From Octopus vulgaris (taxonomy: Eukaryota), in NCBI GenBank assembly GCA_951406725.2, contig OX597840.1:14818001-14882000 (forward strand): 64,000 nucleotides of DNA, read 5' to 3'. The notes under the pieces are model-generated. The model saw nothing but the letters and a program-made list of their open reading frames with translations. It was not told where the DNA came from and searched no databases. The first letter of the stretch is position 1; each line of letters starts with the position of its first letter. The position numbers and the translations under genes were made by a program. This document shows positions 1 to 63,920 of the stretch, piece after piece.

Positions 1-45
1 TGTAATTCCCCGAAAATTTTAGACTTTGTTCCTGCAGTAGAAAGG

Positions 46-89
<44 letters not shown>

Positions 90-221
90 GGCAGTGAGCT
101 GGCAGAATTGTTAGCACACTGTCCATCCATTCATCCATCCATCCATCCATACATGCATACATATATACATGCATGCATACAAACGTTTGTGTGTGTGTGT
201 GTGTAGATTGTTTGAAATGGT

Positions 222-18759: not shown

Positions 18760-19097
18760 ACACAGTCATCACATTTGGCTAAAATGTCTGAATGATGTGT
18801 TTTGTTTCTCTTTTTTCCCCCGACAAGAAGATCGCATTGTTTTACATCATTTTATTCCCTCTGGAGTAATATCAATGTTTTCTTCGAAACATATGTCGGA
18901 AGAATAAAGATTTGAATAGCACCTGTGTTTAACTCCATTTCCTTATTTATCTGTTATACATAAACATTTCACTAAACCCTGGAATTTCTAACTTTATGAG
19001 TAGGCTGTAACATCCTTGGTACTTATGTGAATTTTTTGCTACCCTAGTAACTATTTATTTATTTTTCCGTGTTATTTGTACACATTGAGAAAATACA
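18760..19097 (+). mobile_element. PLE-like short element with decayed HHR, diverged relative of 50467 and 51271
   Basis: ttttcc-CCGACAA-gaagatcgcatt...aatgttttcttc-GAAA-catatg-TC-ggaagaataaag; the tail shares aactccatt...ttattt and gtgaattttttgctaccc. Confidence 0.65.
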
Positions 19098-49610: not shown

Positions 49611-50466
49611 CTAATATAAGTGGCATTTTCCTTGTTTCTGTCTGTCTCTGTCTCTCTTTTTTGCTCTTGTGGGTTCGAGGTGGTGAATTCTTGGCAGAGA
49701 AGAAGGAGAAAAGAATGCACAAGTGGTATGATAGTAGTAGGATGTTAAATGATCAAGTGAGTTAAAAGTGGCTCGTTGTGGATTATAGTAGTGATTGGGA
49801 CTGTTTTCAATGAATTCTTGGGTATCAATGATGATGCCCACAGATAATATGGACTATACTGTACTAATCCTAAGGATACTGACTCTGATGTCAAAATAAT
49901 CTGATCTGTGGAAACAACATAGGGATCTATTAAATGTTTATAAATTCCATTGTGCTATTATTGTTATTATTATATTTATATCACATTATATTGGTATAAC
50001 CATGATGCAACATCGAAAATCTGACTCACTGGTCAGTATCATCAAATGGTACCCAGCATAATGAAATAGGAGCTTTATTTGCATAGCTCTAACATTACCT
50101 AAACAAATTTTAAAAGATAAGGGAATATATATATAAAGATAAATTAAATATAAAGATATTCTATTGACTGTCCAATAATTTATTTATATTACAATATTAC
50201 ATTAAATACTATGAATATAATAATAATACTATGAATATAATATATAGCGTAACATAAAATTATATAAATAATTATAAATTGTTTTGACATATATATATTT
50301 TTTTTTCTGATATACATAATCACGGTTCCATTATGTCTATAACTGAATTATACCAATATTTATATGGTATCCAAATGAAGTACCAGTGAATTGGATGTTT
50401 AACACACACCTTTGAAGGATCTCTTTTCCTCAGTATGTTATTTATATATATATATATATATATATG

Positions 50467-50806
50467 TGAATAAATGAAATTTATGTTTGTTTGTCTTGTT
50501 GTCAAGAGAGGCTCCCTTTCTTTCCTGATGAGAAGATTGCATAATGCACCCTTCATTCCTTTGGAATGAAAACATGCTGTCTTCGAAACATATGTCGAGA
50601 GTAAAGGAATTTTGTTAACATCTTCGTTCGACTCCATTCTTTCATTTATTCATATACAACACACAAATTTCTGCACATGAACCCGGAGTTTCTACCCTTG
50701 ACAGGTCGCTTCAACCGTGTTTCTGACGTGAATTTGCTACCCAGGTTTCGGTTAAACGAATTTTCCATGCTGACGATAAACATAGGATAATTCATTCACC
50801 TACTTA
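50467..50806 (+). mobile_element. PLE/retrozyme-like element in (TA)n
   Basis: Homologous to 51450-51738; starts with 13 bp inverted relative to 50640-50652; (TA)n on both sides. Confidence 0.85.
50515..50608 (+). ncRNA. Type-I hammerhead ribozyme, intact
   Basis: ctttc-CTGATGA (50525)-gaagattgcat...atgctgtcttc-GAAA (50585)-catatg-TC-gagag; stem II pairs at 10 of 11 positions; GUC cleavage after 50596. Confidence 0.9.
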
Positions 50807-50845
50807 AATATATATATATATATATATATATCATCACCATATATG

Positions 50846-50894
<49 letters not shown>

Positions 50895-51270
50895 ATTGAT
50901 ATATATAAATGCTATAATTTTTTTTATGAAATACTATAACATTTTTTTAATATAACATTACTCAATATGACTTCAAGTTCTGTAAGTAGGAGATATTTTA
51001 AGCTTTCTCAATTTTTAAAAACTATTTTAATTAATTTATTTGTATCTGATGAGAGAAATGTGACTGTTTGTATTGGCTGGAAATCTTACCCAATACAAAC
51101 GATTGTAAGGTCTTGTATTATTGCTTTTCTTTGTATTATAATATTAGACCATTTGAAACCTAACATCTTGATGAATTGTTTATGTATTTTGTATTCTCAT
51201 GATAAAAGAACTTGACCTATGAAATTCTGTCATCTACTTTGATTTTTGTCATATATATATATATATATAT

Positions 51271-51738
51271 ATAAATGAAAGAATGGAGTTGAACGACGAT
51301 TTAACAAAATTCCTTTATTCTCGACATATGTTTTGAAGACTGCATATTCCTAATTCCGAAGGAATAAAGGGTGTATTATGCCGCCTTCTCATTAGGGCTC
51401 CGTGTGGGCAGTCATCTAAAAGTTTTTGTTCGTCATGATGCTGACATAAGTTCCTTGTCTTTCCTGATGAGAAGGCGGCATAATGCACCCTTTATTCCTT
51501 TGGAATTAGGAATATGCAGTCTTCGAAACATATGTCGAGAATAAAGGAATTTTGTTAAATCGTCGTTCAACTACATTCTTTCATTTATTTATAGTAAAAA
51601 AAACACACAAATTTCTACACGAAAGCATGTGATCTCTGCCCTTGGCTAGTAGCTTCAACCGTGTTTTCTGACGTGAATTTGCTACCCGGGTATCGGTTAA
51701 CCGAATTATCCATACTAGGATAATTCATTCAACTACTT
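51271..51738 (+). mobile_element. PLE/retrozyme-like element with a 126-bp inverted 5' duplication, in (TA)n
   Basis: 51271-51396 is the reverse complement of 51463-51588; 66-nt spacer; 150-bp tail. Confidence 0.9.
51451..51549 (+). ncRNA. Type-I hammerhead ribozyme, intact
   Basis: tttc-CTGATGA (51464)-gaaggcggcat...atgcagtcttc-GAAA (51525)-catatg-TC-gaga; distal ttcctt/aaggaa pairing; GUC cleavage after 51536. Confidence 0.9.
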
Positions 51739-51860
51739 ATATATATATATATATATTGATAGAAATGGCAAGACAACAAAAGAATGAAGGAGACCTCAAT
51801 ATTATGTAAATAGAGGAATTTATCTGTAAATATAATATGTGACAATTATTTGGTAGCCAT

Positions 51861-59541: not shown

Positions 59542-59600
59542 TATTATCATTATTATTATCATTATTATTGTCATTATTATTGCTATTATTATTATTATTA

Positions 59601-59652
<52 letters not shown>

Positions 59653-59660
59653 CATCATCA
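59475..59660. repeat. (TTA)n/(ATC)n tract
   Basis: Direct inspection. Confidence 0.9.
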
Positions 59661-63206: not shown

Positions 63207-63562
63207 TATTTATTTCAGTCATTGAACTATGGCCATGCTGGAATTGTGACTAGAAGTGTCTTTAATCAATCACTAAGCAGTAATGTTCTGAAGGAGATAT
63301 ACAAAACATCATCATTTAACATAATTTTTTCCACACTGGCATGGTTTGGATAATTTGACAGGGTCCAGTGAGCTGCAGGACTGTATCAAACGGCAATGCC
63401 TTCTGTGGCTTGGTTTCTATAGCTGGATGCTTTTCCTAATGCCAACACATAAACACATACATATGGTTACTCTATCCAGATTACAAGTTCTACTTAGAAT
63501 TACTGCTTTCCACTAGTATTCGTTTGTCTTTTACAGCTGCTGAAGTGGACTAAGGTGTTATA

Positions 63563-63920
63563 ATGGAGGCAATTGGATGCAGATCAGTGATCAGGTTTTT
63601 ATACTTGAAAGGTTGTACACCGAAAGAGACTTTTGATGAGACGAAAGAAGTTTATGGTGACGATGCACCATCATATGACATAGTCAAGCACTGGCATCAC
63701 CAGTTCAAATGTGGTTGGACATTGGTGGAAACTATTCCTATTCCTGGACAAGCACATTTCACTTTTGTTGACGACACTATATAGATAGTGGAAGCCACCA
63801 TTTTTGAGGATCACCGTATAAGTATTTGGCAAGTAGCCCAAGAAATGAAGACAAGTGTAAGGTCCATCGAAAAACTCAGTCGCAATCATTTGCACTTGTA
63901 GAAGTTGTCTGCACAATGTG
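63563..63920 (+). pseudogene. mariner transposase N-terminal (HTH) remnant
   Basis: MEAIGCRSVIRFLYLKGCTPKETFDETKEVYGDDAPSYDIVKHWHHQFKCG..., continuing past a stop ...LEDHRISIWQVAQEMKTSVRSI...HLHL*KLSA. Confidence 0.85.

Follow-up and report, generated by a model that had tools for sequence, protein, structure and literature searches.

Two hammerhead-bearing repeats, A and B, lie about 1 kb apart in the window, the whole 64,000-nt stretch of Octopus vulgaris DNA analysed here. We consider it highly probable that both are two-armed, head-to-head insertions in (TA)n, with arms ending at two fixed points, S1 and S2, and that they likely formed by nicking of both target strands and copying of RNA from the same source. 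Judged from sequence, they derive from an autonomous Hydra-like Penelope-like element (PLE) that encodes a reverse transcriptase (RT) and a GIY-YIG endonuclease (EN) in a 3.56-kb unit. S1, the outer end of one arm, is most likely a point at which reverse transcription starts, by analogy with a related element. The two-ended pattern is explained in kind by the known tail of PLEs; the long tail and the lost CxCX5C linker are modestly new.

PLEs, the closest mobile relatives of telomerase, make inverted, tailed insertions. In the family described here the putative starts lie ~150 nt apart and copies number in the thousands, so that each end can be assigned without doubt.

Insertions A and B

The hammerhead cores, GTC sites and inverted segments of both copies were all found where an initial annotation, made from the letters of the sequence, had placed them (Table 1). 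Both copies keep CUGAUGA, GAAA, the GUC site and the palindrome ACATATGT, which follows GAAA at 50588-50595 (A) and 51528-51535 (B). Both also begin with an inverted segment, of 13 and 126 bp, and the two inverted arms end at the same tttcatttat motif.

In insertion A, a 4-bp GAAA microhomology forms the last 4 bp of the short arm and overlaps the start of the direct arm. The long arm is 98% identical to the long copy L062, and its S2 end lies ~+210 from the predicted cut. In full elements the subfamily A tail runs on to the ORF start, ~55-60 nt further. The inverted arm of insertion B extends to 131 bp at 95% complementarity when ambiguous TA bases are counted, and the hammerhead inside it has both core elements broken by G-to-A changes. 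The direct arm of B starts close to the family's pile-up of 5' ends (see below).

The initial annotation took A and B for sister elements. They are only ~79% alike, and each has far closer relatives, 95-99% identical, elsewhere in the genome. By this comparison A and B are independent 5'-truncated insertions of two subfamilies. Both are most likely inert scars without host function.

Other features of the window were recorded alongside. A lone CTGATGAG lies between the insertions at 51046-51053, with no matching core partner of the Hydra-like family. Weak matches (72-74%) to the near-complete copy L187 at 18851-18962 and 59562-59653 are possibly old relatives or low-complexity sequence. A mariner-type transposase HTH fragment (PF17906, E 3e-10) lies at 63554-63781.

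Table 1. Features of insertions A and B (window positions)
Feature	Position	Strand	Description
(TA)n target, left flank of insertion A	50443..50465		
Insertion A, overall	50467-50806		5'-truncated, in (TA)n
Insertion A, short arm	50467..50479	-	13-bp reverse complement of 50640-50652; outer end = S1
Insertion A, long arm	50476..50806	+	subfamily A pseudo-LTR and tail, 5'-truncated, ~-120 to S2
Type I hammerhead A	50516..50607	+	CUGAUGA 50525-50531, GAAA 50585-50588, predicted cut 50596/50597
S1 region, copy A (read through)	50640..50657	+	within 42-nt G-free tract 50631-50672
Tail, subfamily A	50653..50806	+	S1 to S2, ~155 nt
(TA)n-rich right flank of insertion A	50807..50890		
(TA)n target, left flank of insertion B	51251..51270		
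Insertion B, overall	51271-51739		5'-truncated, in (TA)n
Insertion B, inverted arm	51271..51396	-	126 bp, ~-74 to S1 (+52); hammerhead inside
Insertion B, direct arm	51397..51739	+	subfamily B pseudo-LTR and tail, -140 to S2 (+203)
Type I hammerhead B	51454..51547	+	CUGAUGA 51464-51470, GAAA 51525-51528, predicted cut 51536/51537
S1 region, copy B (read through)	51579..51593	+	in G-free tract
Tail, subfamily B	51589..51739	+	S1 to S2, ~150 nt
(TA)n right flank of insertion B	51740..51757		

Hammerhead motifs

Hammerhead A has a long stem II and a palindromic stem III of 2 bp. Stem II had been noted to differ between the copies and still pair, and covariation across eight diverged copies (cluster representatives out of 178 motif matches) agrees: 94.6% of cells are paired and six pairs are changed on both sides, five of them in stem II. 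None of 500 shuffles scored as high, a control inflated by related sequences, and slid controls were far lower. The constrained hammerhead core folds only 2-3 kcal/mol above the minimum. An Rfam scan of the window at gathering thresholds gave no match, so the hammerhead call rests on motif, fold and covariation; CTGATGA by itself occurs 14 times in the window versus 11.6 by chance, which is uninformative. On these grounds A and B each keep a type I hammerhead with a covarying stem II, and self-cleavage is predicted.

The 5' ends of copies are not enriched at the cut: four of 200 arms begin at -4..+5, nine at -25..-5 and 14 at +6..+32. Copy L203 starts at +1 but abuts a (GA)n run and is hence ambiguous as a cleavage signature. 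The hammerhead most likely serves mobile RNA, in processing or pairing of tandem transcripts, and not a host pre-mRNA.

Parent element

A first-look search of the 2.8-Gb assembly gave 4,058 candidate copies with copy B as query and 2,462 with copy A. Exact matches numbered 1,129 for a 21-nt core motif and 3,262 for a 21-nt pre-anchor motif; with none for either reversed control, this sharing is not chance. Further upstream, long copies carry GIY-YIG, N-rich linker and RT sequence, and the RT motifs FDISSFYP, MGSTDSAQ and LYRDD are found in their ORF. Copy L187 is a near-complete insertion with an inverted S1 arm, a 5' repeat reading into the ORF and a 3' repeat ending at S2. Its two repeats lie 3,560 bp apart, which defines the unit, and its 804-aa frame is ended by one stop inside EN. 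The thumb-to-EN frame is continuous in L061.

Pfam gives a GIY-YIG match at E 0.0098, below the curated cut-off, and no RT match; relatives carry PF00078/PF26215. Protein relatives are found in octopods at E 5e-92, and Atlas matches at 0.94-0.95 include RT/GIY-YIG clusters. Three relatives (P0003, P0007 and P0011) are element-class fragments that their sources annotate as GATA zinc-finger or myb-like host proteins. In 12 distinct read-through copies the tail runs into the ORF start, as in partial tandems of pseudo-LTRs (pLTRs). The element thus combines features of an EN+ PLE: a single ORF with PLE-type RT and GIY-YIG, pLTRs, an inverted 5'-truncated copy at the 5' end, a one-ended tail and a hammerhead motif in the pLTR.

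Likeness to the Hydra clade was judged by eye against the alignments in the supplement of Craig et al. (2021; PMC8557442). That clade is described there by DKT, lack of CCHH, CxxC and CxH around the conserved E and N, and (TA)n targets; the CxCX5C linker is associated with (TA)n targeting. The octopus element has DKT instead of DKG (QSDKTG) and CxxC and CxH around the conserved E and N (CGVCNSE...VN...CMH). CCHH is absent, with one Cys only in IYQC...FYIG, and TA runs follow most S1 and S2 ends. RIRWLAFF of L187 aligns to RIRWKTFF of the relative P0006, with RWL where Hydra has RWK. The linker is absent: no CxC occurs within 120 aa upstream of GIY-YIG in 32 of 32 translated copies, which have an N-rich stretch instead, and P0006 and another relative, P0005, do carry it. 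We therefore file the family as Hydra-like and not as a member of the Hydra clade. A reading as a CCHH-type EN of the Nematis clade was rejected. The element in L187 and L061 targets (TA)n although its CxCX5C linker is missing.

Two fixed ends

We sampled 158 loci in genome order, on C1 and at the beginning of C2, from the first 100 matches listed of two motifs, leaving out three of the places listed. Relative to the predicted cut, S1 outer ends lie at ~+52 to +60 and S2 ends at ~+203 (subfamily B) or ~+210 (subfamily A), ~150 nt apart. Junctions sit in TA-like sequence, which leaves each end uncertain by up to ~10 nt and makes target-site duplications unreadable. Across the sample the inversion start points of the family are not random, as S1 ends cluster within ~10 nt. 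The initial annotation had proposed a fixed template-switch or processing point ~50 nt downstream of the cut. The fixed point stands, as the place where an arm ends on its outer side and not as a template-switch or inner inversion point.

One arm ends at S1 and the other at S2 in nearly every two-armed insertion sampled. A motif method classed 74 of 75 two-ended insertions as S1/S2, one as S2/S2 and none as S1/S1 (binomial p 2e-21 against 50:50), so that the tail stands at exactly one end in 74 of 75. A further 68 lone ends had no called partner, some being broken or very short arms. By a BLAST method, 78 of 83 pairs are clean S1/S2, four are compatible (two end at +194 and two are rearranged) and one is S2/S2. 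The lone S2/S2 insertion, L237, has a tail at both ends (by eye), and its arms stop at -153 and -143.

The inner junctions of arms vary widely, and either arm can be long. Taking BLAST limits as arm limits (a few arms are broken by indels), the S1 arm is longer than the S2 arm in 30 of 82 pairs, and S1 arms can exceed 1 kb beside S2 arms of <150 nt (e.g. L129, L147 and L163). In 57 of 82 pairs the S2 arm extends beyond S1, so the arms overlap, and the S1 arm extends further 5' than the S2 arm in 57 of 82, so neither arm contains the other.

The arms of one insertion are also alike in sequence. They differ by 3.3%, versus 7.4% for random arms of the same subfamily, and, of the 48 pairs overlapping by at least 40 nt, 47 are closer than the median. 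Non-majority bases are shared between arms 225 times versus 52 expected, and both arms come from one subfamily in 80 of 83 pairs. Gene conversion or bursts of one sub-lineage could account for part of these shared variants. S1 and S2 both carry TTCAACT-like and TTCATT words in G-free tracts. The stems predicted around S1 and S2 show no compensatory changes among 54 pairs in six read-through copies, so no RNA structure signal is established there.

Two further hammerhead families, unrelated to the Hydra-like family, follow the same one-of-each rule with tails of ~100 nt; their samples are top-scoring matches and are not position-ordered. The family with palindrome ACAATTGT (L120:1193-1289; L289-L318) is retrozyme-like, with a tandem unit of ~500 nt. 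Its two ends lie ~105 nt apart, with one of each in 12 of 12 insertions in which both outer ends were called. The family with palindrome ACACGTGT (L148:479-591; L259-L288) is very AT-rich, with ends ~100 nt apart and one of each in nine of nine pairs. No ORF was found within 1.5 kb of copies of either family, nor a parent element of the ACACGTGT family. The first end lies at ~+155 to +165 relative to the cut in both families, which shows that this spacing is not constant.

Insertion mechanism and alternatives

The proposed mechanism builds on the RT and GIY-YIG ORF of the parent, its pLTR and hammerhead motif, the fixed ends, the one-of-each pairing, the arm overlap and the shared variants. 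The element protein would nick both target strands. S1 and S2 would each start one cDNA, the two lying on opposite strands and copied from RNA of the same source element; limited pairing with the primer is possible, as the S1 and S2 junctions are partly identical to (TA)n. From in vitro work on the PLE Poseidon, we infer that the S1 and S2 ends are RT starts and that a protein dimer would act on both strands. The inner junctions suggest that the two cDNAs stop at variable points and are then joined by short microhomology, and that many subfamily B cDNAs run to the 5' end of uncut RNA near -153. Both cDNAs could copy the same stretch from two RNA copies, by displacement on one RNA, or from the repeats at the two ends of one RNA; this third route does not account for pairs in which both arms pass -160 (such as L149, L152, L181 and L245).

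Subfamily B arms pile up at -160..-137 (28 of 105, versus two and 10 in the neighbouring 24-nt bins); subfamily A arms show no clear pile-up there (seven versus six and six). The mode in subfamily B is at the CATT of ACTCATT, which we take to be initiator-like, ~30 nt behind TGACGTCA. Both sequences are kept in subfamilies A and B (L187:4010-4070, ~-195 to -150). The pile-up fits a candidate transcription start, the 5' end of an uncut transcript. Contigs of four runs, taken as RNA, cover the family pLTR; contigs cannot show starts, ends or strand, and no clear splice joint was seen in them. In the 5' UTR of L073 (L073:1230-1340), S2 stands between a possible splice donor (CAG/GTATC-like) and a possible acceptor (TACAG), and a stem predicted just ahead of the ATG encloses it. 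Neither strand-biased deamination (G>A at 234 of 8,618 G versus C>T at 262 of 11,692 C) nor an A-to-I imprint (A>G at 155 of 13,815 A versus T>C at 181 of 18,286 T) was found.

Both arms could instead come from one molecule by fold-back, with a cDNA or antisense template refolding to prime its own recopying and nucleases later resolving the product to fixed ends. Such self-priming was argued for the Penelope palindromes of Adineta (Arkhipova, 2013; PMC3846280). In A and B the S1 arm does fall within the span of the S2 arm, and arms share variants, as fold-back would have it. We nevertheless regard this route as unlikely. In the 57 of 82 pairs in which the S1 arm reaches further 5' yet is tailless, neither arm could have templated the other, so fold-back cannot make those insertions, and the long S1 arms beside very short S2 arms also speak against it. 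Near-strict one-of-each use, arm overlap and a common source together rule out simple fold-back for most insertions. It is very unlikely, too, that S1 marks RNA processing, whether by polyadenylation of an antisense transcript or by a cleavage linked to the hammerhead. The initial annotation had read tttcatttat as an antisense AATAAA signal. The reverse strand does carry AATAAA at S1 in the majority sequence of subfamilies A and B, with S1 a constant ~52 nt from the cut. However, the motif is missing from the inverted arm of B, which reads TATAAATGAAAG, and from the S1 region of three read-through copies (L073, L077 and L090), two of which, L073 and L077, still bear an inverted arm that stops at S1. 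TA runs, and no poly(A)/(T), stand at the printed S1 junctions, and the first end of the two other families stands at a different distance from the cut.

The proposal that A and B act as a cis-dimeric double hammerhead in a host pre-mRNA, with their closeness selected, is very unlikely. Palindromic type I hammerheads of PLEs and retrozymes are described as cleaving better as dimers (PMC4209133, PMC7229834). The identical palindromes of A and B could pair (duplex -7.0 kcal/mol), and an A-A homodimer folds into a double-hammerhead-like form, but the free A-B cofold is an extended duplex with no double hammerhead. In one + strand transcript the inverted arm of B lies upstream of hammerhead B and would be made before it, and the hammerhead is predicted to pair with this arm in full (mean probability 0.999). 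The number of A-by-B palindrome pairs expected is ~1e-13 of 8; both values are from equilibrium folding only. The window ORFs (16 + 85, 101 in all) contain no host-gene Pfam domain, a search in which short exons could be missed. As to closeness, chance would place a few pairs less than 1 kb apart at a density of at least 1.2 copies per Mb (~4 when exact motif matches only are counted), and L150 holds two complete two-armed insertions, so neighbours occur elsewhere.

Two-strand nicking with RNA from one source remains the preferred reading for A and B. A wider version of it is possible but doubtful: PLEs in general may use an obligatory asymmetric twin priming, in which one protein dimer would commit each target strand to a different start, S1 or S2, using two same-source RNAs that the palindromic stem III of the hammerhead possibly holds together, and the tail would be the spacing of the starts. 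If so, the tail can be 100-150 nt in Hydra-like families, and (TA)n targeting does not need the CxCX5C linker. The Hydra-like family offers a clean substrate for an in vitro test.

Comparison with known systems

In L1 twin priming, two cDNAs primed from opposite target strands produce a 5' inversion; the arms do not overlap, and one of them starts at the poly(A). The octopus insertions would likewise involve two cDNAs primed from opposite target strands. Unlike in L1, each putative start is internal and at a fixed position, and 57 of 82 pairs have overlapping arms.

Parts of the pattern have been published: inverted, 5'-truncated PLE copies with a 30-40-bp tail at one end (PMC8557442, PMC3846280, PMC11167929), and pLTR hammerheads with a palindromic stem III that work as dimers (PMC4209133). 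The main text of a recent octopus repeat annotation names Penelope; hammerheads and Hydra do not appear there (PMC13282606). In the literature searched, which leaves aside most subscription papers and the 2005-2006 PLE reviews, we found no report of 100-150 nt tails or of one-of-each end counts.

The closest described relatives are the Hydra clade and its octopus family Hydra-1_Obim, listed with another hammerhead in the supplement of PMC8557442. Shared features are DKT, an RW motif, lack of CCHH, CxxC/CxH, a GLYRDD-type RT, (TA)n targets, a canonical type I hammerhead near the 3' end and inverted 5'-truncated copies. Unlike the clade as described there, our family lacks the linker, has RWL and not RWK, and has a tail of ~150 nt and a unit of 3.56 kb versus generally <3 kb; its hammerhead, with a stem II and loop of ~53 nt, also differs from that of Hydra-1_Obim. 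In the table of that work, consensus 3' ends lie ~+29..47 from the cut in 10 families, at +62 and +69, and at +87..152 in 11 families. The position column, as we read it, suggests longer tails across the Hydra clade; we did not use the table as support, as Penelope-13_HM could read as equal ends on both arms.

Like metazoan non-LTR retrozymes (PMC7229834; bioRxiv 10.64898/2026.07.22.740005), the copies have a type I hammerhead with a short palindromic stem III and are short dispersed non-coding repeats. Unlike retrozymes as described in PMC7229834, A and B are end fragments left by truncation of a coding 3.56-kb element, with no tandem non-coding unit. The Penelope elements of Adineta vaga (PMC3846280) share the head-to-head inverted pLTR, the one-ended tail and an N-rich RT-EN insert. 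Their tail is 31 bp and self-priming was proposed for them, a route that fails for 57 of 82 pairs here.

The nearest biochemical parallel is Poseidon (Frangieh, 2024; PMC11167929). In the in vitro work reported there, its protein, a predicted dimer, nicks both strands of AT-rich DNA, extends them, and takes as template RNA that the hammerhead has not cut. RT starts at two internal sites, and their spacing equals the genomic tail. The octopus family resembles Poseidon_Ac in that it targets AT-rich DNA, its two fixed ends lie downstream of the hammerhead, the ribozyme seems not to have cut the templates, and the putative starts fall in G-poor sequence. The sites lie ~150 nt apart in the 5' UTR here and 30-40 nt apart inside the ORF there, and, unlike in Poseidon_Ac, junctions here are partly identical to the (TA)n primer. 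Poseidon showed no strand difference in start-site use in vitro (PMC11167929); for the octopus family, genomic counts give near-obligatory use of one end of each kind.
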